Made by a program: the position numbers and the translations under genes | Shown: positions 1-33,893 of the stretch, piece after piece | Position numbering within the stretch: position 1 is the first letter of the stretch | Layout of the letters: the number at the start of each line of letters is the position of its first letter | The notes under the pieces: model-generated | Told to the model about the DNA's origin: nothing | The model's database searches: none | The model's input: only the letters and a program-made list of their open reading frames with translations | NCBI GenBank assembly: GCA_026396205.1 | Contig: JAPLXF010000058.1 | Location: 1 to 39,207, forward strand | DNA length: 39,207 nucleotides | Direction: 5' to 3' | From: Candidatus Moraniibacteriota bacterium | GTDB taxonomy: Bacteria; Patescibacteriota; Minisyncoccia; Moranbacterales; UBA2206

Positions 1-58
1 AAAGCCCGGCCGGCCCGGCGCCGATAATAATCAAATCAAAAAAATCTTTTTTAGCCAT
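1..58 (-). CDS. 5' fragment of an FAD/NAD(P)-binding oxidoreductase (thioredoxin-reductase-like); continues beyond the left edge
   Basis: Minus-strand ATG at 58..56, 3 nt after the dnaN stop. It reads MAKKDFFDLIIIGAGPAGL, a GxGxxG Rossmann start. Only 19 codons are visible, so the product is tentative. Confidence 0.45.
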   Translation of the reverse strand, partial: MAKKDFFDLIIIGAGPAGL

Positions 59-61
59 AAG

Positions 62-1210
62 TTAGCTCTTTATCGGCATTACGATGTAGACAAAATCGTC
101 CAGCACCTCGCCTTTTTGTTCATCGATTTCCTTGAGCGCCACCGGAGAAGTCCCGCTGTTGATTAAAAGGGCTATTTGGGAAGTAGCCATCACCGATAAG
201 CCGTCTAGAAGATATTTGGCGTTCAGAACCACTTCTTGGGATGGCCCCTGAATGTCGCCTTTGAGTTCTGAGGTGTTTTCACCCACTTCAACGCTTTTAG
301 CCTCGATAGTTATCAGCCCGCTCTCCTGTGAAGTTTTAACGGCAATCTCGCTGGTTTTTCCGGAAGTGAAAATAATAGCCATGCGGACTGCGCTTTGGAT
401 TTTTTCTTTGGAAACCACCGCTCGAGTTTGATAGTTTTTGGGCAAAATATGCTTGTATTCCGGGTATTTGCCGTTAATCAGGCGCGAAACTATTTTCGTG
501 CCATCTACCTCAAAAAAGATTTGTCCTTCTTCGATGGAGATTTTTACCTGGCTTTCCTCTTCACTGGGGATGATTCGGTTTAATTCCAGTAAAGTAGTCG
601 CAGGGATAATTACGCTTTCTTGTTTTTCAATTAAAGTTTTATAGAGATCTTTGGTTTTTTCCAAAGAAACTCGGTTTTCTGAAAGGCGAAAGCTGTCCGT
701 AGAGGCGAAGAAGAGTTCTTTTTCCTTTAAAATAAGATTAACTCCCGTTAATTCCGGCCGCGTTTCATTAATGGCTACCGAAGAAGATATTTTGGAAATA
801 ACCGCCTTAAGGGTTTCTCCAGACAGAGCAAGTTGAAAATCAACTTCTCTTTGGGGAATAAGCGGAAAATCAGAAGCGGGCAATCCCTTAATGACCGCCT
901 TTACCGATCCACTTTTTATTTTCAGATTTTGGTCGGCCGTCTCTAAAATTATATTTTCTCCCGGAGGCAGTGACCCAATAAAACTGCTGATTAATCTGGC
1001 CGGAATGGTAATTTTTCCGTCTTTTTCCACTTTGGCTCCAATCTTAGTTACCACGCCAATCTCCAAATTGGTGGCAGAGAGTTTTAAACCTCCTTTATCC
1101 GCTTCAAAAAGGATATTATTTAATATAGGTAAGGTGGTTTGCTTGGAAACTACTCGCTCGGTATTAAAAATAGCTTTTTTAAAATTTTCTTGGGTGCAAG
1201 TTATTTTCAT
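62..1210 (-). CDS. dnaN: DNA polymerase III beta sliding clamp
   Basis: 382-aa ORF. The N-terminus MKITCTQENFKKAI...TLPILNNILFEA and the three-domain length are typical of the beta clamp. It lies directly downstream of dnaA. Confidence 0.95.
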   Translation of the reverse strand: MKITCTQENFKKAIFNTERVVSKQTTLPILNNILFEADKGGLKLSATNLEIGVVTKIGAKVEKDGKITIPARLISSFIGSLPPGENIILETADQNLKIKSGSVKAVIKGLPASDFPLIPQREVDFQLALSGETLKAVISKISSSVAINETRPELTGVNLILKEKELFFASTDSFRLSENRVSLEKTKDLYKTLIEKQESVIIPATTLLELNRIIPSEEESQVKISIEEGQIFFEVDGTKIVSRLINGKYPEYKHILPKNYQTRAVVSKEKIQSAVRMAIIFTSGKTSEIAVKTSQESGLITIEAKSVEVGENTSELKGDIQGPSQEVVLNAKYLLDGLSVMATSQIALLINSGTSPVALKEIDEQKGEVLDDFVYIVMPIKS

Positions 1211-1468
1211 AAATTTATAATTAAATTATATTTATAAGTTTATTAATATATTTAGATAAATTAAATTTCTGTGGATAAGGTTATTTTTTGGCTTAAATAA
1301 GCTAAAATTTCAGTGGATAAAATAGGGATAACTCATAATTGGGGCTGTTGGGTTTTTAGTTAAAAAATAAATTATTTTTAAAATGGTTTTTATAACCCCC
1401 CACAACAACTGCACTTTCCACAACTTTCATAAGAGTTAAAAAGTAGCTTGTTAACAGTTAATCCACTC
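1211..1468. other. candidate oriC segment (dnaA-dnaN spacer with DnaA boxes and AT-rich unwinding tract)
   Basis: Perfect DnaA box tgtggataa at 1270..1278 and an 8/9 box agtggataa at 1312..1320. Weaker 7/9 matches lie at 1414..1422 and 1459..1467. Positions 1211..1260 are almost pure A/T. The position mirrors the Bacillus-type dnaA-dnaN origin segment. Confidence 0.6.
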
Positions 1469-2830
1469 TTAATTTATGGAATAAAGCCTTTCCTTGAGAA
1501 CGGCGATATCTTCGGATAACTTTTTATCAACTTCCAATTCTTTGGTAATTTTTTCAAAAGCGTGAATGGCGGTGGTATGGTCGCGTCCGCCCAGCCTTTC
1601 GCCGATGCCCGGATAAGAATAATTAAGTTCGCTGCGCATTAAAAACATGGCAATTTGCCGCGGCTTAACCACTTCCTTTTTTCTGCCCTTAACCAATAAA
1701 TCTTCCTGTTCAATATCATAAAATTCTGAAACCACCCTGATAATGTGTTTATGGGTAATGCCTTTTCTTTTGCCGCTGGAAACCAAGTCGGCTAAGGCGG
1801 AAAGAGCAAAATCGCCAGTGATCTCCTGGTTGGAAAGCTGGGCCGTGGCCTCCAGCCGATTGAGCGCGCCTTCCAGCTCCCGAATGTTGGCTGTGATGTT
1901 GGTCGCGATAAATTCCAAGGCTTCTTCGTCGATTTGAATGCCTTCTTCCAGCGCTTTGCGGCGCAAAATAGCCAAGCGGGTTTCATAATCCGGCCGGGAA
2001 ACATCGGCAATCATGCCTCCTTCAAAGCGCGATCGGAGCCTTTCTTCCAATGTAGGAATGGCTTTCGGCGGGCGATCGCTGCTTAAAACAATCTGCTTGT
2101 TAAGTTGGTAAAGATAATTGAAAATATGAAAAAATTCTTCTTGAGTTTTTTCTTTGCCGGAAAGAAATTGAATATCATCAATAATAAGTAAATCAAAAGT
2201 CTGATAAAATTCCTTAAAGGCGTTTATTTTTCCCGATTGAAGAGCAACAATCAAATCATTGGTAAACCGTTCGGAAGTTAAATAGCGCACTTTCAATCCG
2301 GAATCGCGTCGTAAAATTTCATTGCCGATTGATTGCAAGAGATGGGTTTTGCCCAGCCCCACTCCGCCATAAATGAAAAGCGGATTATAAAGCCGGCCCA
2401 AGCTTTGGGAAACGGCGAAACAAGCGGCGCGGGCCAGTTCATTGCTGCTACCAACCACAAAACTTTCAAAAGTGTAGCGGGGGTTTAAGTTGCTTTCTTG
2501 GCTTATTTTGGCTTGTTTCTGGGAAAGTTGGGTTTTCGGATGAGAAATGGCGTCTACGATCGGCTTGTGCAAGCCCCGTTCCTGAGTGGCGGTAATGGTG
2601 CAGACTACTTCTCTAATTTCATTGTGCAAATTACGCAGCGCCCGCAGAATATAAAGTTTGTATTTATTTTCCAGCCACTCCTTGGCAAATCCATTGGGGA
2701 CGCTGATAACTACCTGTCCATCTTTAATGGATAAAATAGAAGTGTTTTTGAACCAAGTAATAAAATTAGCCTTGGAAATAGAAAGCTCTATTTCTCCCAG
2801 AGCGGCTTGCCAAAGTTCTTCGTTAGTCAT
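1469..2830 (-). CDS. dnaA: chromosomal replication initiator DnaA
   Basis: The ORF track starts at 2959, but the conserved N-terminus begins at MTNEELWQAALGEIE (ATG 2830..2828). Motifs seen: Walker A GGVGLGKTHLL, Walker B LLIIDDIQF, SDRPP box, and C-terminal DNA-binding motif GGRDHTTAIHA. Confidence 0.95.
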   Translation of the reverse strand: MTNEELWQAALGEIELSISKANFITWFKNTSILSIKDGQVVISVPNGFAKEWLENKYKLYILRALRNLHNEIREVVCTITATQERGLHKPIVDAISHPKTQLSQKQAKISQESNLNPRYTFESFVVGSSNELARAACFAVSQSLGRLYNPLFIYGGVGLGKTHLLQSIGNEILRRDSGLKVRYLTSERFTNDLIVALQSGKINAFKEFYQTFDLLIIDDIQFLSGKEKTQEEFFHIFNYLYQLNKQIVLSSDRPPKAIPTLEERLRSRFEGGMIADVSRPDYETRLAILRRKALEEGIQIDEEALEFIATNITANIRELEGALNRLEATAQLSNQEITGDFALSALADLVSSGKRKGITHKHIIRVVSEFYDIEQEDLLVKGRKKEVVKPRQIAMFLMRSELNYSYPGIGERLGGRDHTTAIHAFEKITKELEVDKKLSEDIAVLKERLYSIN

Positions 2831-2976
2831 AAATAATAATAGAAATAATTGCGCTTTGAAAGTATAGCACAAAGCCAAAAAAGAAAAGGCAGAGAAAGCT
2901 GGAGAACTTGTTGATAAATTGTGGATCTCTGTATTAAGATTATATACTACACCTGCCATGAGTACGCAAGCGGCAA

Positions 2977-3005
2977 TTGACTTTTAGCTCTCCCGTTGGT
3001 AAGAT
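2977..3005 (+). promoter_or_regulatory. sigma70-like promoter for rpmH operon
   Basis: TTGACT (2977..2982), 17-nt spacer, TAAGAT (3000..3005), about 35 nt upstream of the rpmH ATG. An imperfect DnaA box (tgtggatct, 2920..2928) lies in the same spacer. Confidence 0.4.
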
Positions 3006-3040
3006 TTTAAATAGTAATTTAAACAGCTAACCAGAAAACT

Positions 3041-3178
3041 ATGAGTCAAACCTATAAGCCTAAGCGTCTGCGCCGCAAGCGCCGGCATGGCTTTTTAAAG
3101 CGAAAAAGAACCAGCAACGGCAGAAATGTGCTGGCTCGGCGGAGAAAAAAAGGCCGAAGGAATCTAACGACCGTTTAA
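3041..3178 (+). CDS. rpmH: 50S ribosomal protein L34
   Basis: Too short for the ORF track (45 aa): [45 protein letters not shown]. It has an Arg/Lys-rich L34 signature and sits immediately upstream of rnpA. Confidence 0.9.
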
Positions 3179-3180
3179 CT

Positions 3181-3528
3181 ATGCTCCCGTTCAATAATCG
3201 ACTAACCAAAAGAAAAGATTTTGCGCCCGTCCAGCGGCGCGGGCAGTTTTTTGCGCATGAGAATGTTATGCTGAAAATGGCAGCTAACGGAAAAGAGGAA
3301 AGCCGCATCGGCTTTATTGTTGGCATGGCCTTTTCCAAGTTGGCGGTTAAAAGAAATCAAACCAAGCGCCAGTTGAGGGAAATAATCCGCGGCCGGCTTA
3401 AAGAAATTAAAAAAGGCTTGGACATTGTGATTACCGTTCGCAAAAGACCGGACGAACGAGTGGATGCGAAAAAGCTAGCGGCGGATATCGAAATCGTGCT
3501 GAAAAAAAGCGGTTTAATTAAAATTTAA
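3181..3528 (+). CDS. rnpA: RNase P protein component
   Basis: 115-aa basic protein with the RNR-type motif KLAVKRNQTKRQLRE. The rpmH-rnpA-yidC-jag synteny is canonical. Confidence 0.9.
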   Translation: MLPFNNRLTKRKDFAPVQRRGQFFAHENVMLKMAANGKEESRIGFIVGMAFSKLAVKRNQTKRQLREIIRGRLKEIKKGLDIVITVRKRPDERVDAKKLAADIEIVLKKSGLIKI

Positions 3529-15564: not shown

Positions 15565-15587
15565 TTGTTTTAAAACTATTGTATGTT

Positions 15588-15665
15588 GTCATTCCGGCCT
15601 CCGAGCCGGAATCTAGTTCATCGGCATTAGTTATTTACTGGATTCCGCATCAAGTGCGGAATGAC
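15588..15665. repeat. dual-hairpin MITE-like element (GTCATTCCGG...GGAATGAC family), copy A
   Basis: The sequence is gtcattccggcctccgagccggaatctag...ttactggattccgcatcaagtgcggaatgac. It forms two hairpins and has inverted termini gtcattccg/cggaatgac. It fills the spacer upstream of the 1041-aa gene. Confidence 0.75.
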
Positions 15666-15672
15666 AAAATTA

Positions 15673-16882: not shown

Positions 16883-16985
16883 CCCGGTAGTAGTCCCGCC
16901 TTTGTTAAAATAAAGCGGGATAAAGCTATGAATTATTAATTTAGTATCCTGTAGTATCAGATTTATAACGGCGGGACACTACGGG
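16883..16985 (-). promoter_or_regulatory. long-range inverted repeat abutting the start codon of the 184-aa gene
   Basis: cccggtagtagtcccgcc (16883..16900) pairs with ggcgggacactacggg (16970..16985): 8+5+3 bp with two bulges and a 69-nt loop. The proximal arm begins 1 nt from the ATG at 16882. Confidence 0.45.
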
Positions 16986-17003
16986 ACAAGTCCCTTTTGA
17001 ATT

Positions 17004-17082
17004 GTCATTCCGGCCCCAGAGCCGGAATCTAGTCTACAAACCAGAGTTTATTTACTGGATCCCGGATCAAGTCCGGGATGAC
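17004..17082. repeat. dual-hairpin MITE-like element, copy B
   Basis: The sequence is gtcattccggccccagagccggaatctag...tttactggatcccggatcaagtccgggatgac. It lies in the spacer downstream of virB4. The ORF-track entry 17002..17283 (SFRPQSRNL..WIPDQVRDD) is its translation artefact. Confidence 0.75.
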
Positions 17083-17097
17083 CCCGCCGTGGCAGGG

Positions 17098-17490
17098 TCA
17101 TTTTTTCTCTTCCTCTTTTTCTTCCATTTCATCCAATTCTTTTTTGGCGTTTTCAATTTCCAAAAGCTGGGCCGGGTCGGTGGTGATTATCTGGTCTTCC
17201 GAATAGGAAGCAATGACTTTAATAGCCACATGTTTGGTGCCGGCAAAGAAAATGCCTTCCCCCACGTTGCTTTCCAGCAGTAAAAACTTTTCTTGGTCAG
17301 TCAAATAAAATGTTTCCGCAACCACATCAATGGCGGCCGGCGATTGTTTGAGCAGTAATTGTATAGACGAATTGGTAACAATCGGTTTGCCGTAGCGGGA
17401 AGCCAAAAAGTCGTTGATATCTTGCGTAATAGTCGTCAGGCCGGTGTAATATTTCCGGCAGCGTTTGGCAATGCCGAACATAAACCACAT
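17098..17490 (-). CDS. VirB4 segment 4 (C-terminal motifs)
   Basis: Reads FGIAKRCRKYYTGLTTITQDINDFL...SIQLLLKQ, which matches the conserved RK(Y)..g....TQ...D region of VirB4/TraC ATPases. Confidence 0.8.
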   Translation of the reverse strand: MWFMFGIAKRCRKYYTGLTTITQDINDFLASRYGKPIVTNSSIQLLLKQSPAAIDVVAETFYLTDQEKFLLLESNVGEGIFFAGTKHVAIKVIASYSEDQIITTDPAQLLEIENAKKELDEMEEKEEEKK

Positions 17491-18853
17491 ACATGGCTAC
17501 CGGCCGCAGTTCTTCTTCCATATCGCGGATATTAAAAACCACCAGCGAATTGTTGACTCGAATATTGGTCGGCTGATTGAGGAAGCCGGAGAAAATTCCT
17601 TCAGTGTATTTTTCCAAGCGCGTGGCTAAATCTTCCGCACCTTCCATATTCCGCAAAACTTGGTATAAATCAGTCATCGTCGGAAAAGCTTCGGCCGTGA
17701 GCGTATTAAAATTAGTCTGCTCGGTAATGTCGCGAATGGCATAAGTTTCATGGACGGCCTTGTCCAAAACGGAATCTTCTTCGGGAGTGATATTGCCCAG
17801 CATAATATGCAAAAGTCCCAGCAAACTGGCGATATTATTGCGCAAAATATCGGCCGGCTCTTCATCTTCCCGCACCTTGGGCAGGTCGAAGGGATTGATA
17901 TGATGCGGCGAAGTCAGGGAAATCTTGATAAAAGTGCCATTGACCGTTTCACAGAGATGCTTGTATTCATTTTCCGGATCGATAATAATCACTTCCGTTC
18001 CCAGCATCAAAGAGCGGAGCGTTTCCAATTTAATAGTATAGCTTTTACCGGCGCCGGACTTGGCGAAAACGACCATATTGGCATTTTCCATTTTGAAACG
18101 GTCGAAAATAATCAAGCTGTTATTGTGGCGGTTGATGCCGTAGAGAATACCTTCGTCATTGGAAAGGGTGGAAGAAACAAAAGGAAAAGTCGTGGACAGC
18201 GGAGCCGAATTCATATTGGTTCCCACATCCAGTTCGTCGTTGGCCAGCGGAATCGCCGAATTGAAGCCTTGTTCGGATTTGAAAACCGCCGGTTTGACAT
18301 AAACCAACTGGGCTTCCAAAATAGCTTCAATCGATTTGGAAATTTTATCCAGCTCTTTTTCGTCTCCGGCGTAAATAGTTACATACAGCCCGAAGCGGAA
18401 AAATTTCTCCGTTCCCTGCTGAAGCTTGTCGCGCAGTTCTTCAATGTCCGTAGCGGCTGTTTCCAGCGCCGGGTCGCGAATTTTGCCGCCGGCCTCTTCA
18501 ATGTGCAGCTGGGATTGGACTTGGGTGGCGCTTTTGCGGAGCGTTTTCAGAATATCATTGGTGTCGATCGGATGGATAAACATGGAAATATCCAGCGGCA
18601 GGTCAATGTTGATAATCGGAGAAAACCAGTTGCTGTGGAGATAGCGCGGATAAGCAATGACGAAAAGCGTCTGCGCCAAAGTTTCGCCGACGCGGATATA
18701 GCGCGGGGCGACTTTAATGGCAGAGGGCGCGATTAAATCAGCCAACTTGGCGACGCCCTCTTGGTAATAGCGCTCGCTTCTTAAGACTTCGTCTTTTTCT
18801 TCCGGACGCAGAGTCTCGCCCTTTTTCTTTTTTATTTTGAGAAAATCCAACAT
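17327..18853 (-). CDS. VirB4 segment 3 (N-domain, Walker A)
   Basis: Motifs: APRYIRVGETLAQTLFVIAYPRYL, Walker A VVFAKSGAGKSYT, and EVIIIDPENEYKHL. The sequence after ..EELRPVAMYVV (about 17490) reads as nonsense. Confidence 0.85.
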   Translation of the reverse strand: MLDFLKIKKKKGETLRPEEKDEVLRSERYYQEGVAKLADLIAPSAIKVAPRYIRVGETLAQTLFVIAYPRYLHSNWFSPIINIDLPLDISMFIHPIDTNDILKTLRKSATQVQSQLHIEEAGGKIRDPALETAATDIEELRDKLQQGTEKFFRFGLYVTIYAGDEKELDKISKSIEAILEAQLVYVKPAVFKSEQGFNSAIPLANDELDVGTNMNSAPLSTTFPFVSSTLSNDEGILYGINRHNNSLIIFDRFKMENANMVVFAKSGAGKSYTIKLETLRSLMLGTEVIIIDPENEYKHLCETVNGTFIKISLTSPHHINPFDLPKVREDEEPADILRNNIASLLGLLHIMLGNITPEEDSVLDKAVHETYAIRDITEQTNFNTLTAEAFPTMTDLYQVLRNMEGAEDLATRLEKYTEGIFSGFLNQPTNIRVNNSLVVFNIRDMEEELRPVAMYVVYVRHCQTLPEILHRPDDYYARYQRLFGFPLRQTDCYQFVYTITAQTIAGRH

Positions 18854-18858
18854 ATTTT

Positions 18859-19148
18859 TTAGCGGATATCCATTTGCTCCACCATCCCTAAATCGCTGTG
18901 TTCGAAAATTTGCGGGTTATAGGAAGTGTAAAGCAGTTCGATAATTTCTTGGGTTTTGAGCATAGTCAAGCGGAGCCCCATGCCGGAAAGTCCGGCGACA
19001 ATATGGTCCACTCTTTGCAATAGCTGGTTGCGGTAAGTTTCAAAATTAGTTCTTTTTTCCAAAATGTCCTTACGGGGATTAACTAAACTGAAAACATTGC
19101 GGAAAAAACCTTTTTCTTTGTTTTCAATGGGAGAAAAAGGAACAGTAA
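18859..19148 (-). CDS. VirB4 segment 2
   Basis: This frame is open from 19236 and contains no ATG. The ORF track lists only 18859..19062, from a TTG. It reads ..YITVPFSPIENKEKGFFRNVFSLVNPRKDILEKRTNFETYRNQLLQRVDHIVAGLSGMGL..MDIR and ends at a TAA. The upstream boundary is approximate. Confidence 0.45.
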
Positions 19149-19393
19149 TGTAAGATGAGAATTTGCAGGGGGAAATCCAGAGAATTAAGGAAATTTTGGT
19201 AGCCGTTGATGATGGCTTCCTGCTCTTGGGTGGATTTCAAATCGTAATTGATGGCCGAAACGGCAATAATGGCGCGGATGGCCCCACTTTTCAGCACCAC
19301 GATATCTTCCTTAATTTCCAGCACATCCAAAAACTGCTGGGTGGTAGCGCTCCCGGTTTTTTTGGCTAATTTGGTTGAATACAGAGGCTCCAT
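19124..19393 (-). CDS. VirB4 segment 1 (N-terminal)
   Basis: Reads MEPLY..TTQQFLDVLEIKEDIVVLKSGAIRAIIAVSAINYDLKSTQEQEAIINGYQNFLNSLDFPLQILI. From memory this resembles the N-terminus of PrgJ/TcpF/Tn916-Orf16-type VirB4 proteins. The last 9 codons look out of frame. Confidence 0.55.
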   Translation of the reverse strand: MEPLYSTKLAKKTGSATTQQFLDVLEIKEDIVVLKSGAIRAIIAVSAINYDLKSTQEQEAIINGYQNFLNSLDFPLQILILHYCSFFSH

Positions 19394-19516
19394 ACGCGTA
19401 ATTTCTAATATCTAATTTCTAATTTCCAATGAAATTATTAATTTCAAATTTCAAAAATAATTAAACATTATAAATTTCATTGGTAATTGGATATTGGAAA
19501 TTGGTAATTATTAAAT
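19394..19516. repeat. AT-rich 7-nt word arrays arranged as an imperfect palindrome
   Basis: taatttc taatatc taatttc taatttc caatgaaat faces atttcattgg taattgg atattgg aaattgg taatta, with arms of about 37 nt. It lies in the prgI-virB4 spacer. Confidence 0.7.
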
Positions 19517-19909
19517 CTATTTTCCTTGTTCCAACAATTTGGATATTTCGGTTATTTTCGCTTCGCTGATTTTTTTCTGTTCTTTTTTAGCGATTATTTT
19601 TTTTATTATTTTAGCCTTTTGGGCTTTTTCCGGAATTCTTTTCCAGAAATACAATTTAGGCTTGAAAACAAAAACAACGGACGAGGTAATAAAGGAAATC
19701 AGCGGCTGGTTATAGGGGCGGTAGAAGGCGAAAGCCCCGAAAATAGCGGCAATCGGGACGCAGGAGATAAAGAAAGCGCTGACATCCAGCAAGTTCCAAG
19801 TTACCAGCAATACCGCGCCCATACCGAACATCCAGCCTAGCTGTTTGGCAGTTAAAGGCCCAACAATCTTGTCTTCTTTATCAATAAATTGGGGAACATT
19901 GAACAGCAT
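19517..19909 (-). CDS. PrgI-family (VirB3-like) small membrane protein
   Basis: MLFNVPQFIDKEDKIVGPLTAKQLGWMFGMGAVLL plus a second TM is the PrgI-family pattern. It lies directly upstream of virB4. The preferred start is ATG 19909. The ORF-track extension to 19951 is a translation of the heptamer array. Confidence 0.8.
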   Translation of the reverse strand: MLFNVPQFIDKEDKIVGPLTAKQLGWMFGMGAVLLVTWNLLDVSAFFISCVPIAAIFGAFAFYRPYNQPLISFITSSVVFVFKPKLYFWKRIPEKAQKAKIIKKIIAKKEQKKISEAKITEISKLLEQGK

Positions 19910-19951
19910 GGAACATGGAACATGGAACATGGAACATGGAATATGTAACAT
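19893..19951. repeat. tandem heptamer array (GGAACAT)n, plus-strand sense
   Basis: Four perfect ggaacat units (19910..19937), then ggaatat and gtaacat. Two degenerate units lie at 19893..19906. The array contains the prgI start codon. Confidence 0.85.
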
Positions 19952-19965
19952 GTTTCATTTTTTTA

Positions 19966-20334
19966 TTATTTTTTACTTTCAATTAATTTCCAGAGCATAG
20001 CTCCTATTTCATCCAAAAGACTCATAATTTCATCATATTCTTTTTTGCAAATATATTTTTCAGTATGCGAGAAATAAACCAGATATTTAGTTTCTTTCAA
20101 TGAGCCGTAGGAAATTTCCAAAAAATTTCTGTAGGAATTCCGGCTGTTTCTAGCATAGCCTTCTATATAGTTTAGTATAATTGAAAGCGCCGACCTTCTC
20201 AATTGGGAAGTTACTCCATAAATTTCTTCTTTTGGAAAGTTTTTAGTTTCAGAATATATTTTATGGATCACCAAATCCATTTTTATTTTTAAAGCATCAT
20301 GAAATCTTATTTTGTTTTCTGTTTTTTGCTTCAT
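19966..20334 (-). CDS. four-helix-bundle protein (23S rRNA intervening-sequence protein / Avd family)
   Basis: 122 aa. FPKEEIYGVTSQLRRSALSIILNYIEGYARNSRNSYRNFLEISYGSLKETKYLVYFS matches the family signature (sQlrRAa.Si..NIaEG...s..d...fl.ia.GS..E). Confidence 0.85.
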   Translation of the reverse strand: MKQKTENKIRFHDALKIKMDLVIHKIYSETKNFPKEEIYGVTSQLRRSALSIILNYIEGYARNSRNSYRNFLEISYGSLKETKYLVYFSHTEKYICKKEYDEIMSLLDEIGAMLWKLIESKK

Positions 20335-20377
20335 GTTATGTGTTATGTGCTATGTGTTCCATGTTACGTGTTCTATG
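20333..20377. repeat. tandem heptamer array in opposite orientation (ATGTTCC-like)n
   Basis: Units atgttat gtgttat gtgctat gtgttcc atgttac gtgttct atg. It fills the whole spacer between the stop of the 488-aa gene and the start of the four-helix-bundle gene. It is the reverse complement of the 19893..19951 array type. Confidence 0.8.
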
Positions 20378-21839
20378 ATTTCAAATTTACCACATTCCTG
20401 CCCATCTGTCTTTCGGGTTTAGTTGGCAGCTGGACTGGTGGATAGGAATTTTGGCTGGCACCGAAGACCGGTTCAATGCGTGAGGGAGTTTTTTGCATAG
20501 ATTTCAAATCAACAATTCTTTTGCCTCGGGAAATAGGCTCGCCCCGTGGAGGCGTAGCCTCTTTACGGGGTTCGGGGATATCCGGCGGCGGAGTTGGTAT
20601 GGAAACCGGCGGTTTTTGCGCTTGCCCCGTAGCGAACCCGGTTCTGCTACTGGGGGATTGGATAGCGGCTAATTTTTCTTCTATTTCCGAACCCAAGCCC
20701 GTTTCTCCAGTTGTTTTCAGGCGGTTTTTTTCAAAAGGCATTTTTTGCGGGGAAGAAAAACTCAAAGTTCCCAGCGAATCAATTTCATCTTCTTCTTTTT
20801 CTTCTTTTTCCGGCGCCTTAAAAGTCTCCGTCCCAATCGTCTCGCCGCGTGTCCCGCCTTGGCGGGATTTACGCGGCTCCCTGTCGAATGCTCCATATTC
20901 TGCATTATATGTCTGTCCCATTCTACTACTTGGGGCCGCGCCGCGTGGAGGCGTAGCCTCTTTACGCGGTTCTATGCTATGTGTTACGTGCTCCGTATTA
21001 CTTGTTCCATGTTCCATGTTATGTGTTCCATGCTCCATGAAAAAAATCTCCTTCCTATTCTCATCAACCGAAATTGGTGATTTTTCGTCTAGCGCTTTCA
21101 AAACCATGGCCAATTTCCGGCGCTCGTCCTCACTTAATTTAATAGTGTTTTTTTCTTGGAAAAGATAATGGCTGCGCGTCAGCTGGTCATGGTATTCGTA
21201 GCCGAGGTTGAAAGTATAATCGGCAATCCAGTTTTTAACCGAGGGCCGGACCGGATCGGGAAAACTTTTCAGAGTGATTTTGTCATTAGTAATCAATTGT
21301 TCGCCTAACTGGGGATATTTTTTCAGCGCTTCGACGATAGGCAGATTGACTAATTTGGGAATATAAACTTTTTTCTCTAAGACTTCCTTAGTTTCTCCAG
21401 CTTCCTCTTTAGTTAGTTCTTCTTTTTCTCTCATCAAATCGGCAATCCACGGTTCGGTAATTAAAACTTTTTGGTATAATTCTTCTTCAGATATTGGCGG
21501 CGGAGGCGGATTTATGCCCTTCCATTTTTCCAAAATCGGCTGGGCATTGGGAAATTGTTCCGGGAACCGGGCAAAAATTCTTTTGACAATTTCCTTAGCG
21601 ATGCCAAAAGCGGTATAGGAATTAACGCGGACATTATTTTGAATTGCCGCCGGCAAATTTTCTAAGGCAAAATCACCAACAAAAGCCAAACCAACCGAAC
21701 CTGTTATGTTAACGCTTAATTTTGGGTTAATGTTAAAATAAATTAAACTTTTTTTAATTTCTATCATTGGAGTATCTGAAATCGCCAAATTAAATATTTC
21801 CAGTGGTAATTTATTTAATTTTTCTGAAAAAGTAGCCAT
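20373..21839 (-). CDS. hypothetical cytoplasmic protein with repeat-derived, low-complexity C-terminal half
   Basis: 488 aa with no TM or signal peptide. The N-terminal 260 aa look ordered, with a PPPPP linker. The C-terminal half contains MEHGTHNMEHGTSNTEHVTHS (heptamer array) and two EPRKEATPPRG units (hairpin element). Confidence 0.75.
   Translation of the reverse strand: MATFSEKLNKLPLEIFNLAISDTPMIEIKKSLIYFNINPKLSVNITGSVGLAFVGDFALENLPAAIQNNVRVNSYTAFGIAKEIVKRIFARFPEQFPNAQPILEKWKGINPPPPPISEEELYQKVLITEPWIADLMREKEELTKEEAGETKEVLEKKVYIPKLVNLPIVEALKKYPQLGEQLITNDKITLKSFPDPVRPSVKNWIADYTFNLGYEYHDQLTRSHYLFQEKNTIKLSEDERRKLAMVLKALDEKSPISVDENRKEIFFMEHGTHNMEHGTSNTEHVTHSIEPRKEATPPRGAAPSSRMGQTYNAEYGAFDREPRKSRQGGTRGETIGTETFKAPEKEEKEEDEIDSLGTLSFSSPQKMPFEKNRLKTTGETGLGSEIEEKLAAIQSPSSRTGFATGQAQKPPVSIPTPPPDIPEPRKEATPPRGEPISRGKRIVDLKSMQKTPSRIEPVFGASQNSYPPVQLPTKPERQMGRNVVNLKS
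20542..20570. repeat. CCCCGTGG...TTTACGGGG hairpin element, copy 2 (inside CDS)
   Basis: The sequence is ccccgtggaggcgtagcctctttacgggg. On the minus strand it is translated as PRKEATPPRG. Confidence 0.7.
20941..21039. repeat. composite: hairpin element copy 3 (20941..20969) plus 10-unit heptamer array (20970..21039), inside CDS
   Basis: ccgcgtggaggcgtagcctctttacgcgg carries a compensatory C-G to G-C swap in the outer stem relative to copy 2. It is followed by ttctatg ctatgtg ttacgtg ctccgta ttacttg ttccatg ttccatg ttatgtg ttccatg ctccatg. With my boundaries the composite is 99 nt, or 33 codons. Confidence 0.7.
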
Positions 21840-24218: not shown

Positions 24219-24341
24219 GTCATTCCGCACCCCAAGTCATACGACGGGGTAAACTTGATGCGGAATCTAGTAAATAAAACAAAATTATTGGACTGGATCC
24301 CGGATCAGGTCCGGGATGACATTTGTGTAGCTCGGGATGAC
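24219..24341. repeat. dual-hairpin MITE-like element, copy C (extended)
   Basis: The sequence is gtcattccgcacccc...ggggtaaacttgatgcggaatctag...ggactggatcccggatcaggtccgggatgac, plus an extra half-site ctcgggatgac. The ORF-track entry 24033..24389 (WIPDQVRDD) is its artefact. Confidence 0.75.
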
Positions 24342-24346
24342 AACAT

Positions 24347-28198: not shown

Positions 28199-28201
28199 AT
28201 T

Positions 28202-28242
28202 TTATCGGAGCTCAACTCCGATTCGGAGTTGAGCTCCGATAA
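28202..28242. terminator. bidirectional hairpin between convergent genes
   Basis: ttatcggagctcaactccga-t-tcggagttgagctccgataa is a near-perfect 20-bp palindrome. It lies between the UbiA-family stop (28198) and the rsmA stop (28247). Confidence 0.6.
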
Positions 28243-28246
28243 ATCT

Positions 28247-29110
28247 CTAAAAGAGCTTTACTAATTTTTTCCAATCTTCAATACTTAATTCTTGTGCGCG
28301 GGCGGTTGGTAAAAGACCGGCAGTTTTTAATTTTTCTTCCACTGTTTTTTTATCCAAATGGAAACTGTTAGCTAGATTATTAAGTAAGGTTTTTCTTTTG
28401 GCTGAAAATCCGGCCTTCACGACGCGGAAAAATTTCTTACTTTGTTCTTTGCTATGTGTTCCATGTTCCGTGCTATGTGTGATGCGAATGACCGCACTGT
28501 CAATTTTTGGCACCGGAGAAAAACAATCTTTGCTTACCGGAAAAAGAATTTTCGACGTGGCGTAATACTTTACGGAAACCGCCAAAAGGCTCATTTTTTT
28601 GGGGGTTGCAACGATTCTTTCCGCCACTTCTTTTTGAACCATCAAAATCATTTCCTGTGGCGGATTTTCGCTTTCCAAAAATAATCGAATAATCGGAGCG
28701 GTGATGTAGTATGGAATGTTGGCGATGACTTTGTAACCCTCACCCCCCAGCCCCCTCTCCCAGCGGGAGAGGGTAGGGTGAGGGGAAACGACATTCGATG
28801 TCTTTTGGTCGCTTTGGTCGAGAGACATCGAATGTCTAAATAATTCCGATAAATTTACTTTCAAGATGTCGGCATTTACAATTTTCAGATTTTTAACGCC
28901 GGAAAATTTTTTCTCCAAAAGCTCCACTAAATTTTTATCCAGCTCGACGGCCATCACTCGGCCGGCTTTTTTAACCAGTTCTTCCGTCAAAATTCCCTTC
29001 CCCGGACCGATTTCCAAAACAAAATCCGACGGCTGCAGATTTGCAGCGGTTATAATTTTTTTAACAACATCCTTGTCGGTTAAAAAGTTTTGTCCTAATC
29101 TTGTCGGCAT
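28247..29110 (-). CDS. rsmA: 16S rRNA (adenine1518/1519-N6)-dimethyltransferase RsmA/KsgA
   Basis: Motifs: LGQNFL, the SAM motif VLEIGPGKGILTEEL, NIPYYITAPI, and C-terminal FSAKRKTLLNNL. It carries two repeat-derived in-frame segments. Confidence 0.9.
   Translation of the reverse strand: MPTRLGQNFLTDKDVVKKIITAANLQPSDFVLEIGPGKGILTEELVKKAGRVMAVELDKNLVELLEKKFSGVKNLKIVNADILKVNLSELFRHSMSLDQSDQKTSNVVSPHPTLSRWERGLGGEGYKVIANIPYYITAPIIRLFLESENPPQEMILMVQKEVAERIVATPKKMSLLAVSVKYYATSKILFPVSKDCFSPVPKIDSAVIRITHSTEHGTHSKEQSKKFFRVVKAGFSAKRKTLLNNLANSFHLDKKTVEEKLKTAGLLPTARAQELSIEDWKKLVKLF
28445..28486. repeat. 6-unit heptamer array inside rsmA
   Basis: Units ttctttg ctatgtg ttccatg ttccgtg ctatgtg tgatgcg, 42 nt or 14 codons. 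On the minus strand it is translated as ..THSTEHGTHSKEQ... Confidence 0.7.
28737..28836. repeat. two-hairpin palindromic element inserted in frame in rsmA
   Basis: Hairpin 1 is nested: ccctcaccc..ccctctcc-cagcg-ggagaggg..gggtgaggg (28737..28784). Hairpin 2: gacattcgatgtct (28790..28803) pairs with agacatcgaatgtc (28823..28836). The element encodes RHSMSLDQSDQKTSNVVSPHPTLSRWERGLGGEG, which sits between conserved RsmA motifs. Confidence 0.75.
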
Positions 29111-29214
29111 ATTATTAGCTTGTTAGTCTTTAGCTTTTTAGCTTATTAGTTTATTTTTTGTAGCTTTCTAGCTTCTTATTTTTCTAAAAAGCTAAGAAGC
29201 TAATTCCTAAAAAG
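29111..29214. repeat. spacer built of 7-8-nt TAGCT-containing word repeats with internal hairpin
   Basis: The tag trinucleotide recurs every 7-8 nt (ttagctt gttagtc tttagct ...). tagcttctta (29169..29178) pairs with taagaagcta (29193..29202). Confidence 0.6.
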
Positions 29215-31780: not shown

Positions 31781-31842
31781 ATTTCTAATTACCAATTTCC
31801 CTGCCTGCCGGCAGGCAGGTAATTTCCAATTAAATTTTAATG
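31781..31842. repeat. CCTGCCTGCCGGCAGGCAGG palindrome flanked by AATTTCC-type words, copy 1
   Basis: Perfect 20-nt palindrome at 31800..31819. It is flanked on both sides by the direct word aatttcc and further aattacc/aattaaa words. Confidence 0.8.
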
Positions 31843-32313
31843 TTAAAATTTTTCTTTAGATTTGAGATTCTGGATTATTAATAAAAATATTCCTATAACA
31901 ATAAAAGAATCAGCTAAATTGAAAACCGGCCAGAATTTCAGGTCGATGAAATCAGTGATGCATCCGTAGTATAGCCTATCGATCAGGTTTGATATAGCAC
32001 CGGACAAAATTAAAATAAGGGAGTAATTAGTAATTAGTAATTTGCCTGCCTGTCCGGTAGGCAGGTAATTAGAAGTTTTTATTCCCCAATTACCAATTAC
32101 AAATTTCAAATTACTTGCTATGAGCAAGATAAAAATAATTATACTTGACCATAATATCCAAAACAAGAAAGGCGGAATATTGATTCCAAACGCAATATTT
32201 TTATTGCAAATATAAAATCCGCCAGAATGACGGATAATATATTTAGAAGCTTGGTCAGCAGCTATTAAAAGTAAAAAAAATAGTCCCAAAAATATTTTTT
32301 TATATTTAAACAT
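31843..32313 (-). CDS. lspA: lipoprotein signal peptidase II
   Basis: Motifs: NKNIAFGI and GGAISNLIDRLYYGCITDFIDLKFWPVFNLADSFIVIG (catalytic Asp motifs). It contains a repeat-derived in-frame segment. Confidence 0.9.
   Translation of the reverse strand: MFKYKKIFLGLFFLLLIAADQASKYIIRHSGGFYICNKNIAFGINIPPFLFWILWSSIIIFILLIASNLKFVIGNWGIKTSNYLPTGQAGKLLITNYSLILILSGAISNLIDRLYYGCITDFIDLKFWPVFNLADSFIVIGIFLLIIQNLKSKEKF
32022..32112. repeat. palindrome-plus-word-array element inserted in frame in lspA, copy 2
   Basis: The sequence is taattag taattag taattt-gcctgcctgtccggtaggcagg-taattag ... ccaattaccaattacaaatttcaaattac. On the minus strand it is translated as NLKFVIGNWGIKTSNYLPTGQAGKLLITNYS, between TM helices. 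Confidence 0.7.
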
Positions 32314-33143: not shown

Positions 33144-33250
33144 AATCTTTACTAATTACTAATCATTACTAATATACTAATTTATAATATTAGTAATTCG
33201 TATATTCGTAAAGATTCGCCTGCCTGCCGGCAGGTAGGTAATTCGTAGAG
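33144..33250. repeat. word arrays (actaatt / attcgta) plus CCTGCCTGCCGGCAGGTAGG palindrome, copy 3
   Basis: Palindrome at 33219..33238, flanked by attcg words on both sides. Upstream, ttactaatat pairs with atattagtaa. Confidence 0.75.
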
Positions 33251-33629
33251 GAAACAAAAAACACCCTCAAGCGGTGTAAAATTTTTTTAGAAGTAGGCCG
33301 CACGAATAGCCAATTAAGAAAAAATATAGCCTAGTGCGGGCCCACTTCTTAGAACATATGTCAATATTTTATATATATTATTTTCGTCCGGGTGAGAGAC
33401 AAATTTAATAATTTTTATAAAATATGATTTTACGTATGTCCGTAACATTCTTCTGACTTGAATGTTTTTCTCCAACCATTCTCTGGTTTTAAACCTTTTA
33501 GTTAAAGAGCTAGCTTTTTATATTTTTTTTGTTTTTATAAAAAGATTTTGTTTTTGTTTTTAGGGTCCATATTAGTCAGAAATAATATGGCGATTATTAG
33601 ATGTTACTAATAATGCTTGAACAGCAGGA

Positions 33630-33672
33630 GAGTTTTCAATCGCAAATAGGGGGAAATTGCGATTGAAAACTC
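33630..33672. other. perfect 16-bp stem-loop in the long non-coding gap
   Basis: gagttttcaatcgcaa (33630..33645) pairs with ttgcgattgaaaactc (33657..33672), with an 11-nt loop atagggggaaa. No U-tract follows on either strand. Confidence 0.7.
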
Positions 33673-33714
33673 CTACGCCGTTCCTGAATATTTTCTTTTC
33701 AATTTACTGATTCT

Positions 33715-33743
33715 ATTATAGCAAAAAAATAGGCTAAAGTCAA
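33715..33743 (-). promoter_or_regulatory. near-consensus sigma70 promoter firing leftward into the non-coding gap
   Basis: The minus strand reads TTGACT (33743..33738), a 17-nt spacer, then TATAAT (33720..33715). The nearest downstream annotated start on that strand (yraN, 33143) is about 570 nt away. Confidence 0.5.
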
Positions 33744-33893
33744 TCAAAAAAACGAAAATGGCTTTAATAAAGCTTATCTGGTTTTTTAAATTAGCAACCC
33801 TCTATTTCATAATTTCCCCTGATTTGAAAAGTGAGTTACTTTTTCAGCTTAAAATGGAACAAAATTGTTTTTTTAAAACAAGTTATCCACAGT

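Follow-up and report, generated by a model that had tools for sequence, protein, structure and literature searches.

We propose that a four-helix-bundle (4HB) gene in a Candidatus Moraniibacteriota genome and the two heptamer arrays that enclose it form one unit, namely an intervening-sequence-type gene cassette that was inserted between a gene of a T4SS cluster and prgI and is read and paired in the operon mRNA. We put the probability of this reading at roughly 0.6. Most genes of the 4HB family in many bacterial phyla have the same layout, and the cassette is therefore a widespread self-contained insert. Moreover, the 23S rRNA intervening sequence (IVS) of Coxiella is built in the same way and undergoes RNase III cleavage, and therefore we read the cassette as being of the IVS type, but in mRNA. 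The preliminary description of this DNA rightly observed that inverted arrays bracket a 4HB gene. Its interpretation stood with regard to the protein family, the arrays, the prgI start, the insertion and the likeness to IVSs, but fell with regard to a duplex of ~40 bp and the hint of an Avd gene of a diversity-generating retroelement (DGR). The features of the window, that is the whole 39,207-nt stretch analysed, are given in Table 1.

Table 1. Parts of the cassette, its host genes and further heptamer arrays (window coordinates)
Feature	Position	Strand	Evidence
Empty heptamer hairpin, prgI stop to TraC-like gene start	19399..19510	minus	TRF; inverted repeat
prgI (130 aa), host gene directly downstream	19517..19909	minus	Pfam PrgI 6.3e-9; orthologue starts
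3′ arm of cassette	19893..19955	minus	TRF; pattern count; predicted duplex with 5′ arm
4HB gene (122 aa; 23S_rRNA_IVP / TIGR02436 family), cassette cargo	19966..20334	minus	Pfam, NCBIfam and PDB matches
5′ arm of cassette	20332..20377	minus	TRF period 7/14; inverted repeats with 19893-19955
T4SS-cluster host gene (488 aa), directly upstream	20373..21839	minus	63 homologues, conserved motifs
Third heptamer array (array C)	20974..21039	minus	TRF; inverted repeat 49 nt at 82%

The 4HB gene, its arrays and the junction with prgI

The family assignment of the ORF was upheld by matches to Pfam 23S_rRNA_IVP (PF05635; 1e-28, 100.1 bits against a cut-off of 33.8), NCBIfam TIGR02436 (102.1 bits, cut-off 24) and PDB 2GSC/XCC0516 (5.8e-13). 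It is the only 4HB gene found by six-frame hmmsearch of the window (4.6e-61), and 9,118 clusters (50% identity) match its protein. The dN/dS of the 4HB protein is 0.04-0.20, showing purifying selection, and therefore the protein is functional. The divergence of the arms is below that of synonymous sites.

The inverted arrays proved equally real, with the pattern GGAACATGGAACAT (at most 2 mismatches) matching 12 times in the window where shuffles predict 0.17. Units of the GGAACAT type lie on the plus strand at 19893-19951, where TRF reports a period of 7 with 6.6 copies and 92% matches (19907-19952), and the reverse-complement type forms the array at the other side of the gene (TRF periods 7 and 14; three inverted-repeat pairs). 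Read on the sense strand, the 5′ arm consists of A/C-rich heptamers (CATAGAA CACGTAA CATGGAA CACATAG CACATAA CACATAA CATG), with the TAG stop of the upstream gene (20375-20373) inside the first unit and the ATG of the 4HB gene (20334-20332) inside the last. The 3′ arm is built of U/G-rich (CATGTTC)n heptamers and takes in the prgI initiation region; the prgI ATG (19909-19907) is its last good unit, and further in-frame ATGs lie 5′ of it, one per three units. The start proposed for prgI in the preliminary description, inside the downstream array, was borne out by orthologues in three other clusters (L082, L084 and L085), which fix the ATG by the conserved beginning MLFNVPQFI/MLTNVPQFI. A 144-aa 'PrgI' ORF starts inside the array and has an odd N-terminal extension.

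At the other boundary, the conserved C-terminus of the 488-aa protein (...GRNVVNLKS) stops at the first unit of the 5′ arm. We considered the C-terminal third of this ORF, which is GC-rich and contains array C and two hairpins, as non-coding and rejected this, since the homologues (n = 63) keep the motifs FSSPQKMPFEK and PRNVVNLKE there. Array C was missed in the preliminary description and is a better partner of the 3′ arm than the 5′ arm is, showing 82% complementarity over 49 nt and a duplex of 48 bp at -58.4 kcal/mol. It lies in frame in the variable linker of the 488-aa gene, where it encodes MEHGTHNMEHGTSNTEHVTHS, and one orthologue (L086) has a heptamer array at the equivalent linker site. 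The empty hairpin downstream of prgI has 52-nt arms that are 77% complementary and separated by 8 nt; with arms of AATTACC/AATTTCC... and ...GGAAATT/AGAAATT it has a cassette-like build without an ORF, and locus L043 holds a second 4HB cassette at the equivalent junction. The neighbouring TraC-like/VirB4 genes in the window look disrupted.

Comparison with orthologous clusters supported the earlier suggestion of a cassette between two cluster genes. In L082 and L084 there is no cassette and just 10-12 nt separate ...NVVNLK* from the prgI ATG. Two further clusters, L083 and L085, have an empty heptamer hairpin at the same junction, the 3′ arm of the former ending in the prgI ATG, whilst L097 carries a different small ORF (GxxExxY) between inverted arms. 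As judged from these alignments, the cassette is an insertion exactly between the upstream stop codon and the prgI ATG, replacing a spacer of ~10 nt. Relative to the empty sites the spacer is replaced with no evident target-site duplication, although L082 and L084 are distant orthologues (35-40% protein identity). The site is flanked by two protein genes of a T4SS-like operon and does not lie in an rRNA gene (23S helix 25 or 45). Searches for Rfam families, rRNA genes and tRNAs in the window gave nothing above chance, as did those for promoter and terminator signals of the cassette. A separately assembled 1257-nt contig equals 19283-20539 with zero differences. The runs that contain the sequence are DNA metagenomes, whose contigs confirm it and hold no cassette-free variant.

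Recurrence of the layout across phyla

We compared 78 related 4HB genes from Patescibacteria, Omnitrophota, Planctomycetota, Elusimicrobiota and others. Arm complementarity was scored by gapped, transition-tolerant alignment, with duplex energies taken from the arms only; strict ungapped scoring was too harsh for imperfect arrays and RNAduplex on 110-nt flanks separated poorly, and both were replaced. A flank-to-flank score of at least 27 was reached by 64/78 4HB genes (82%), compared to 7.7% of 168 other genes at the same loci (Mann-Whitney 4e-25), and ~18% of the 78 loci are without significant arms. The preliminary description had named relatives carrying the gene without arrays as the observation that would count against it, and in the event some 82% of these relatives have complementary arms.

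Pairing scores between arms of different loci are at background (median 17, compared to 37 for self), and therefore each locus has its own complementary pair. Over the 64 loci, the median arm is 34 nt long, the start of the 5′ arm is at a median of -4.5 nt relative to the stop codon of the upstream gene and the end of the 3′ arm at a median of +1 nt relative to the downstream ATG, which lies within the arm in 49%. The arms fill the entire stop-to-start gap. Neighbours on both sides are on the same strand in 66/78 cases. The repeat unit is 7 or 8 nt, 6 nt never being the best period, and every cassette has a unit of its own, built around a weak A[AG]C(A) core. Across unrelated contexts, the more alike two 4HB proteins are, the more alike are their arms, the similarity being 36/31 at 70% identity or above against a background of 15. 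This comparison shows that arm sequence tracks the protein phylogeny across unrelated sites, pointing to co-inheritance of arms and ORF.

The layout also occurs in plasmid copies of cultured cyanobacteria (Anabaena sp. 90, Nostoc punctiforme, Picosynechococcus and Geminocystis), five of the six checked having flanking arrays; in one copy (L096) the arrays are direct and not inverted, and in another (L091) there is an array on one side only. The 4HB gene lies between cas6 and cas4 in Anabaena sp. 90 and between cmr2 and cmr3 in Picosynechococcus PCC 7003, and the copy of N. punctiforme is on plasmid pNPUN02. The 4HB cassettes are mainly chromosomal or plasmid-borne, as a phage collection gave no 4HB match and IMG/VR gave 4 weak matches only, one of which had arrays. 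Cassettes can be close together, with three within 6 kb in L043, and empty heptamer hairpins without an ORF accompany loaded ones. In L043 and L018 such a hairpin shares its heptamer with a loaded cassette less than 2 kb away. We rejected this as a general rule, the heptamer being shared in only 3/16 same-contig pairs. In-frame repeat elements inside genes were seen at array C and at an lspA site.

Arm pairing in RNA and alternative readings

We suggest the following mechanism for the cassette as an IVS-type insert in mRNA. The cassette would be co-transcribed as part of the minus-strand operon transcript, in which the arms would pair in vivo over 30 bp, so that the ORF would be extruded as a stem-loop and the stop codon of the upstream gene would come to lie next to the prgI ATG at the stem base. 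As 23S rRNA IVSs have the same build, the stem is by analogy a likely RNase III substrate, and cleavage is predicted. Pairing, melting of the 5′ arm by ribosomes, or cleavage would then set the amounts of PrgI and of the 4HB protein. The 4HB protein probably binds the repeat arms, by analogy with the related Avd pentamer, which grips a stem-loop of RNA.

The predicted duplex of the 5′ and 3′ arms has 30 bp with internal loops, shorter than the ~40 bp first suggested, at -27.6 kcal/mol compared to -9.3 +/- 2.7 for shuffles, and the terminal stem is present in both the MFE and the centroid structure of the sense RNA. The median arm duplex over the 64 loci is -31.5 kcal/mol. Arm pairing in RNA is thus predicted by folding models. 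The whole-cassette fold reaches a z of -1.79 only, and in a 1.18-kb sense fold 38/46 paired positions of the 3′ arm pair with array C, its strongest predicted partner, which is ~1 kb upstream, within the coding sequence of the upstream gene. Among the transition mismatches between arms there is no bias between those that would leave G-U in the sense (149) and in the antisense (143) strand, and antisense arm duplexes match the sense ones in stability (36 versus 28 loci; p = 0.3, 64 loci); in the window the antisense duplex is the stronger (-47.3 versus -27.6). Therefore, the arm sequences give no sign of selection on the sense RNA specifically to pair.

These last results bear on a reading that we consider rather improbable, in which the arms act in DNA, as terminal inverted repeats or as hairpin/cruciform recombination sites for moving or copying the cassette, and mRNA pairing is incidental. 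The strand-symmetric mismatch spectrum with its many transversions (149/143/191) and the equal stability of sense and antisense duplexes are expected from neutral decay of a DNA inverted repeat or from gene conversion between its arms. Moreover, the arms travel with the ORF between unrelated sites, one terminal sequence is found at three junctions of L085, empty or loaded, and the empty hairpins, including those of L043 and L018, resemble non-autonomous derivatives. However, nuclease and recombinase motifs are missing from the 4HB fold, no transposase or integrase was found in the window, the 6-kb loci inspected have no transposase either, and no target-site duplication is visible. The arms are also strand-asymmetric relative to the ORF (5′ arm 46% A, 3′ arm 45% T; 41 loci versus 3), which is needless for a purely double-stranded site, and they abut stop and start codons within a few nt, which points to a link with expression.

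Such a link could also mean that the cassette serves the host, the arrays exerting translational control of the downstream gene by coupling or by masking the prgI start and the 4HB protein being a repeat-binding regulator that the host keeps. We regard this as quite unlikely. It would account for the upstream stop codon and prgI ATG lying inside the arms, for the 7- or 8-nt unit, and for the stop codons in all three frames of the 5′ arm (41% of loci versus 11% of shuffles) and the ATGs in all three frames of the 3′ arm (19% versus 0.4%). The strong purifying selection on the protein is also in keeping with it, and TAACTGA repeats of Beggiatoaceae likewise end 1 nt before start codons (PMC4679880). 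However, close functional equivalents of the operon (L082 and L084) lack the cassette, cassettes precede unrelated housekeeping genes (ugd, ksgA, scpA, galT, efp and cas genes), and the cassette phylogeny departs from the host site, the prgI-linked 4HB copies being just 52-56% identical to each other with unrelated heptamers. Taken together, these data form the pattern of a selfish insert and not of a dedicated regulator.

That the gene is the Avd accessory gene of a DGR, as the preliminary description hinted, is most improbable and we reject it. DGRs are common in CPR bacteria and the protein has a weak match to Pfam bAvd (6e-11), but it scores 36.5 bits on the NCBIfam Avd equivalog NF033474, against a cut-off of 80 and compared to 102 on TIGR02436. 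The check proposed earlier, for a reverse transcriptase with template/variable repeats, found no reverse transcriptase in a Pfam scan of every window ORF of at least 100 aa and no such pair among the repeats found in the window. Lastly, it is scarcely credible that the parts lie together by chance or that low-complexity repeats misled the assembly: contigs of this family are often short, repeats break assemblies and the TraC-like/VirB4 neighbours appear disrupted, but an independent contig covers the whole cassette without differences, the pattern count far exceeds expectation, and the layout recurs elsewhere, both at 64 further loci and on finished plasmids from cyanobacteria in culture.

Significance and comparison with known systems

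Since its discovery in rRNA intervening sequences the S23p/IVP 4HB family has had no known role outside DGRs, and the tandem heptamers of cyanobacteria, Xanthomonas and sulfur bacteria likewise lack an explanation. The window and the comparison unite the two in one architecture, from Patescibacteria to cultured cyanobacteria. We found no link of 4HB/IVP genes in general to flanking heptamer arrays in the open-access full-text literature. More speculatively, and with considerable doubt, we suggest that 4HB 'IVS proteins' and prokaryotic 7/8-nt tandem repeats could together make up a single widespread class of gene cassette that has so far gone undescribed. Such cassettes would insert precisely at stop-to-start junctions or into the loops of rRNA hairpins, and would hide by folding out as a stem, thereby rejoining the host RNA on either side. 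The binding partner of the repeats would be the protein, whose specificity would co-evolve with the unit; empty hairpins would be non-autonomous remnants, and the nuclease-fold GxxExxY protein a second cargo with its own arm type (ACGAAT core). If true, this would provide a function for both the S23p/IVP family and STRR-type repeats, unexplained for ~30 years. Genetic tools exist at least for Nostoc punctiforme and for close relatives of Picosynechococcus PCC 7003. As N. punctiforme, Anabaena sp. 90 and Picosynechococcus are cultured, the ideas of RNase III cleavage, translational coupling and protein-repeat binding are directly testable. For annotation, cassettes explain why many contigs are short and why CPR genes show odd N-terminal extensions and peptide segments encoded by repeats. 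IVP genes have moreover been reported as 'CRISPR-associated' (PMC3936711) and are more likely inserts in cas operons.

The closest known system is the 23S rRNA IVS with an S23p/23S_rRNA_IVP ORF (Leptospira, Coxiella burnetii, Haemophilus, Brucella; CPR), which shares with the cassette the protein family and the enclosing terminal inverted repeats able to form a stem. The likeness is stronger than first claimed. In C. burnetii, 3-4 tandem heptamers (GACAGAT) of variable copy number directly precede the S23p ORF, RNase III cleaves a 28-bp terminal stem at the first repeat, and the SD is poor or absent (PMC4990558); in the cassette, six to seven units run directly into the ATG. CPR bacteria have IVP ORFs in both 16S and 23S rRNA insertions (PMC11270868). 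The host RNA differs, being a polycistronic mRNA for the cassette, at a stop-to-start junction, and rRNA helix 25 or 45 for the IVS. Moreover, the ORF of Coxiella is reported to be in decay and probably not translated, whereas the cassette protein is under purifying selection.

The Avd proteins of DGRs share the homologous 4HB fold; Avd is a basic pentamer of which all five protomers contact an 11-bp RNA stem-loop (bioRxiv 10.1101/2023.10.23.563531). Unlike a DGR, the cassette has no reverse transcriptase or TR/VR and scores below the Avd equivalog cut-off, and Avd genes are not known to have tandem-repeat arms on both sides.

The arms resemble the heptamers of cyanobacteria (STRR), Beggiatoaceae (TAACTGA) and Xanthomonas (GGGAATC) in being 7-nt intergenic units beside start codons. 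Bacterial heptamer repeats often run up to a start codon or stop 1 nt short of it (PMC4679880; bioRxiv 10.1101/2022.06.06.494920), and the Xanthomonas repeats include 70-75 convergent (inverted) pairs (PMC4692102). In those papers, however, one or few consensus heptamers recur genome-wide and are tied to no protein, whereas the cassettes have locus-specific units of 7 or 8 nt in complementary array pairs around a 4HB gene. Cyanobacterial 4HB genes are themselves flanked by STRR-like heptamers.

Like MITE, REP and RPE elements, the cassettes are short and transposase-free, have inverted ends and occur many times per genome at gene junctions. Those elements have unique terminal repeats, whereas the cassette arms are tandem 7/8-nt arrays, many copies hold a conserved, selected ORF, and the cassette has no known mobilising enzyme. 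Rickettsia palindromic elements lie in frame inside genes, as do array C and the element at the lspA site.

Lastly, integron cassettes (attC) resemble the 4HB cassettes in carrying small, promoterless, co-directional ORFs, sometimes several in a row, with a repeat conserved in structure and not in sequence. Unlike them, the cassette has no integrase (none was found in the window) or attI, and its inverted repeat brackets the ORF and does not follow it. Moreover, an integron forms one array, whereas the 4HB cassettes are scattered over many different housekeeping operons.

The cassette and the prgI junction

The preliminary description had assigned the 122-aa gene to the four-helix-bundle (4HB) family, and membership is certain: the ORF matches Pfam 23S_rRNA_IVP (1e-28), NCBIfam TIGR02436 (102 bits) and XCC0516 (PDB 2GSC, a solved pentameric 4HB protein; 5.8e-13). 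The inverted heptamer arrays described around it were recovered by TRF and inverted-repeat detection, and the pattern GGAACATGGAACAT, with at most 2 mismatches, matches 12 times in the window vs 0.17 expected from shuffles. In the sense (minus-strand) direction, ...AAT TTG AAA TCA TAG closes the upstream gene, and this TAG belongs to the opening unit of the 5′ array (CATAGAA CACGTAA CATGGAA CACATAG CACATAA CACATAA CATG), whose last ATG is the 4HB start codon. The 3′ array (CATGTTA CATATTC (CATGTTC)x4 CATGC) starts 14 nt past the 4HB stop codon; its last ATG (19909-19907) is the prgI start codon, which was thus rightly placed inside the downstream array. An assembly artefact was rejected, as a separately assembled 1257-nt contig matches 19283-20539 without a difference.

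Features of the 4HB cassette and other repeat elements in the window
Feature	Position	Strand	Remarks
GGAACAT-type array	19893-19951	+	from sequence
Tandem array	19907-19952		TRF; period 7, 6.6 copies, 92% matches
Reverse-complement-type array	20332-20377		tandem and inverted-repeat detection
122-aa 4HB ORF	19966-20334	minus	between the two arrays
Array C	20974-21039		in frame, variable linker of the 488-aa T4SS-cluster protein; encodes MEHGTHNMEHGTSNTEHVTHS
34-nt GC-rich hairpin, two copies	20540-20573, 20939-20972		94% identical, inside the 488-aa ORF; both encode EPRKEATPPRG
Empty heptamer hairpin	19399-19510		occupies prgI-to-TraC-like junction; 52-nt arms, 77% complementary, 8 nt apart
Fragmented TraC-like and VirB4 genes	17098-19393		ORFs 19124-19393, 18859-19062, 17327-18853, 17098-17490
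~85-nt element, three copies	15565-15672, 16960-17097, 24236-24346		T4SS-like operon junctions; two hairpins (GTCATCCCGGACTTGATCCGGGATCCAGTAAAT...ACTAGATTCCGGCTC.GGGGCCGGAATGAC), compensatory changes between copies
Perfect 21-nt palindrome	28199-28246		TTTATCGGAGCTCAACTCCGA / TCGGAGTTGAGCTCCGATAAA; between two convergent genes; probably a bidirectional terminator
Empty hairpin, 8-nt units	29111-29214		CTTTTTAG ... CTAAAAAG; directly upstream of ksgA/rsmA (28247-29110)
CCTGCC(N)GGCAGG-type GC-rich hairpins	32018-32115, 31796-31842, 33200-33260		between AT-rich heptamers; one within lspA ORF (31843-32313), apparently in frame
Gene-free stretch	33144-33893		750 nt; 27-nt hairpin at 33619-33683, no Rfam match
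dnaN-dnaA-rnpA-yidC region	1-3200		near chromosomal origin

The 488-aa ORF upstream is a genuine gene; its N-terminal domain is common to 63 homologues, in which the C-terminal motifs FSSPQKMPFEK and PRNVVNLKE are kept. That the cassette was inserted between two cluster genes, as had been proposed, is supported by orthologous clusters, which are distant (35-40% protein identity). In two of these (L082, L084) nothing but a 10 or 12 nt spacer separates ...NVVNLK* from the prgI ATG (N-terminus MLFNVPQFI / MLTNVPQFI). Therefore, the window cassette (20372-19910) stands in place of a short spacer. Other clusters carry different contents at this point, namely 57 nt with an empty heptamer hairpin (AACACGA AACACAC AACATGA ... 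ATGTTAC ATGCTTC ...) whose 3′ arm terminates in the prgI ATG (L083), an empty hairpin of different sequence (L085), a GxxExxY ORF within inverted arms (L097), and a heptamer array immediately past the stop codon, at a contig break (L086). The terminal sequence of the L085 hairpin recurs around a GxxExxY (PDDEXK_3) ORF one junction on and, at the junction after that ORF, brackets a non-coding insert. The stop-to-start junction upstream of prgI has been filled repeatedly and independently.

Several further elements were observed. In L085 (4740-5260 and 5900-6100) and L097-L104, inverted arms also bracket GxxExxY (PDDEXK_3, TIGR04256) genes; their core, ACGAAT/ATTCGT, differs from that of the 4HB arms (A[AG]CA), and a single operon contains one such arm sequence in empty and loaded form as well as around a non-coding insert. 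ACGAAT-type heptamers lie ahead of lspA and the UPF0102 gene in the window. A second 4HB cassette fills the junction equivalent to prgI-to-TraC-like in locus L043, and loci L035 and L045 have a 4HB cassette upstream of ksgA/rsmA. At the linker site of array C, the L086 orthologue (36% identity) carries an array of different heptamers (GAACAAG/GATCAGC; ~2110-2180); one-unit slippage of such an array would shift the reading frame. The two differences between the 34-nt hairpin copies are compensatory (CCCCGT/ACGGGG vs CCGCGT/ACGCGG), pointing to a structured repeat element that the reading frame tolerates. The fragmented TraC-like and VirB4 genes, which are 229-aa and ~606-aa genes in orthologues, reflect pseudogenisation of the cluster or, alternatively, misassembly; a sister-sample contig has 152 additional nt at 19153/19154.

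Recurrence of the layout

We compared 80 genomic loci, mostly metagenome-assembled and picked by homology to the window protein, from Patescibacteria (many classes), Omnitrophota, Planctomycetota, Elusimicrobiota, Desulfobacterales and others; 78 4HB genes were usable. Complementary arms, defined by a score of at least 27 between the 120-nt flanks upstream of the start and downstream of the stop, flank 64/78 4HB genes (82%) vs 7.7% of 168 other genes from the same loci (Mann-Whitney 4e-25), and were found in <1% of shifted windows. Tandem-repeat alignment is forgiving in such arm comparisons, and 5′ and 3′ flanks drawn from different loci gave background scores (median 17 vs 37 for a locus's own pair). 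The arm unit varies between loci and the two arms within each locus remain complementary. Units are 7 nt in 29 loci and 8 nt in 33-35; other best periods were confined to two 5′ arms (9 and 12 nt), 6 nt being best in none. There is a weak A[AG]C core (3.2 per 5′ arm vs 1.8 in shuffles), spaced at 7 or 8 nt. An unbiased search for inverted pairs of 7/8-nt arrays, covering 518 kb, returned 73 with a bimodal loop length, 21 being 'empty' (loop <100 nt) and ~40 having a loop of 345-450 nt, the size of the 4HB ORF.

Among plasmid copies in cultured cyanobacteria, 4/6 checked have the inverted-array layout. Inverted arrays accompany the 4HB copies between cas6 and cas4 of Anabaena sp. 90 and between cmr2 and cmr3 of Picosynechococcus PCC 7003. 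The Nostoc PCC 7120 copy (L091) has an array on a single side, and a Pseudanabaena galeata plasmid copy (L096, cas6|4HB|cas4) breaks the inverted-arm rule with long direct arrays, (AAAAGCT) ~15x upstream of the 4HB gene and (AAAAGCC)n downstream.

The arms (median 34 nt) are placed with respect to codons. The 5′ arm starts at the upstream gene's stop codon (median -4.5 nt) and ends 14.5 nt ahead of the 4HB ATG, and the 3′ arm runs from 5.5 nt past the 4HB stop to the downstream gene's ATG (median +1 nt), which lies within it in 49% of loci. Same-strand genes stand on both sides of 66/78 cassettes, with gaps of ~40 nt. The arms are also strand-asymmetric, the 5′ arm being 46% A (A+C 65%) and the 3′ arm 45% T (41 loci vs 3). 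All three frames of the 5′ arm hold stop codons in 41% of loci vs 11% of shuffles, and all three frames of the 3′ arm hold ATG in 19% vs 0.4%, in part because the length of the repeated unit is not a multiple of three.

Between loci with unrelated neighbours, arm similarity climbs with 4HB identity (36/31 at identities of at least 70% vs ~15), and therefore arms and ORF travel as one unit. The four prgI-linked cassettes (window, L009, L027, L043) are only 52-56% identical with unrelated units and are independent arrivals. Purifying selection acts on the protein (dN/dS 0.04-0.20); arm divergence is below synonymous-site divergence, a comparison in which repeat alignment may flatter the arms.

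Pairing of the arms and its interpretation

In sense RNA the inter-array stem is predicted in both MFE and centroid structures of the cassette, with a whole-cassette z-score of -1.79 vs -2.66 in antisense. The predicted 5′ arm-3′ arm duplex has 30 bp with internal loops in sense (-27.6 kcal/mol; shuffles -9.3 +/- 2.7) and 38 bp in antisense (-47.3 kcal/mol). Array C and the 3′ arm give a predicted sense duplex of 48 bp (-58.4 kcal/mol), and in a 1.18-kb fold array C captures 38/46 paired positions of the 3′ arm. Across loci, arm duplexes are strong (median -31.5 kcal/mol), with no advantage for sense over antisense (sense stronger in 28 loci, antisense in 36), and transition mismatches are equally divided between those that would be G-U (149) and A-C (143) in sense RNA. 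Therefore, complementarity is maintained, and sense RNA is not singled out as the target of selection.

Taken together, we favour, at a probability of about 0.6, an IVS-type, mRNA-borne cassette, in which a selected 4HB gene with complementary arms is inserted exactly from stop to start and transcribed with the operon; neither a promoter nor a terminator stands out from chance in it, and it matches no Rfam family. Within the operon mRNA the paired arms would extrude the cassette as a stem-loop, bringing the host stop and start codons side by side, and RNase III would, by analogy to rRNA IVS, be likely to cut the stem. Since the 3′ arm contains the prgI ATG, PrgI synthesis would be governed by arm pairing, by ribosome melting at the upstream stop or by cleavage. 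Strand asymmetry and the codon-exact position of the arms speak for a connection with expression; they count against arms that function in DNA-level mobility alone, a reading we consider unlikely even with the symmetric mismatch spectrum on its side. That spectrum favours complementarity that arose at the DNA level, e.g. through a copying mechanism or arm-to-arm conversion, and such an origin and the expression link may hold together. It is more doubtful still that the cassette is a translational regulator kept by the host. An Avd role in a diversity-generating retroelement was rejected, no window ORF of at least 100 aa being a reverse transcriptase and the Avd equivalog score lying under cut-off.

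Comparison with known systems

Heptamer arrays next to start codons have been reported in Beggiatoaceae (PMC4679880) and Nostoc (bioRxiv 10.1101/2022.06.06.494920), and convergent pairs in Xanthomonas (PMC4692102), in each case with no protein linked. We found no paper in the open-access literature tying 4HB genes in general to flanking arrays. Eighteen IVP genes within cas operons were interpreted earlier as CRISPR-associated (PMC3936711); the cas-operon 4HB cassettes on cyanobacterial plasmids (L092, L095, L096; cas6-cas4, cmr2-cmr3) look like inserts, not cas components. Avd, a relative of the 4HB proteins, forms a pentamer, and its five subunits clasp an 11-bp RNA stem-loop that has flipped-out bases (bioRxiv 10.1101/2023.10.23.563531).

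CPR bacteria also have IVP ORFs in rRNA insertions (PMC11270868). The 23S rRNA IVS of Coxiella encodes an S23p protein of the 4HB family, and directly 5′ of this ORF are three tandem GACAGAT heptamers and one degenerate unit, strain-variable in copy number; RNase III cleaves where the first repeat begins (PMC4990558). The window cassette has the structure of an IVS and a location outside rRNA, and its cleavage would follow by analogy. The Coxiella IVS and the window cassette are alike in architecture and differ in host RNA.
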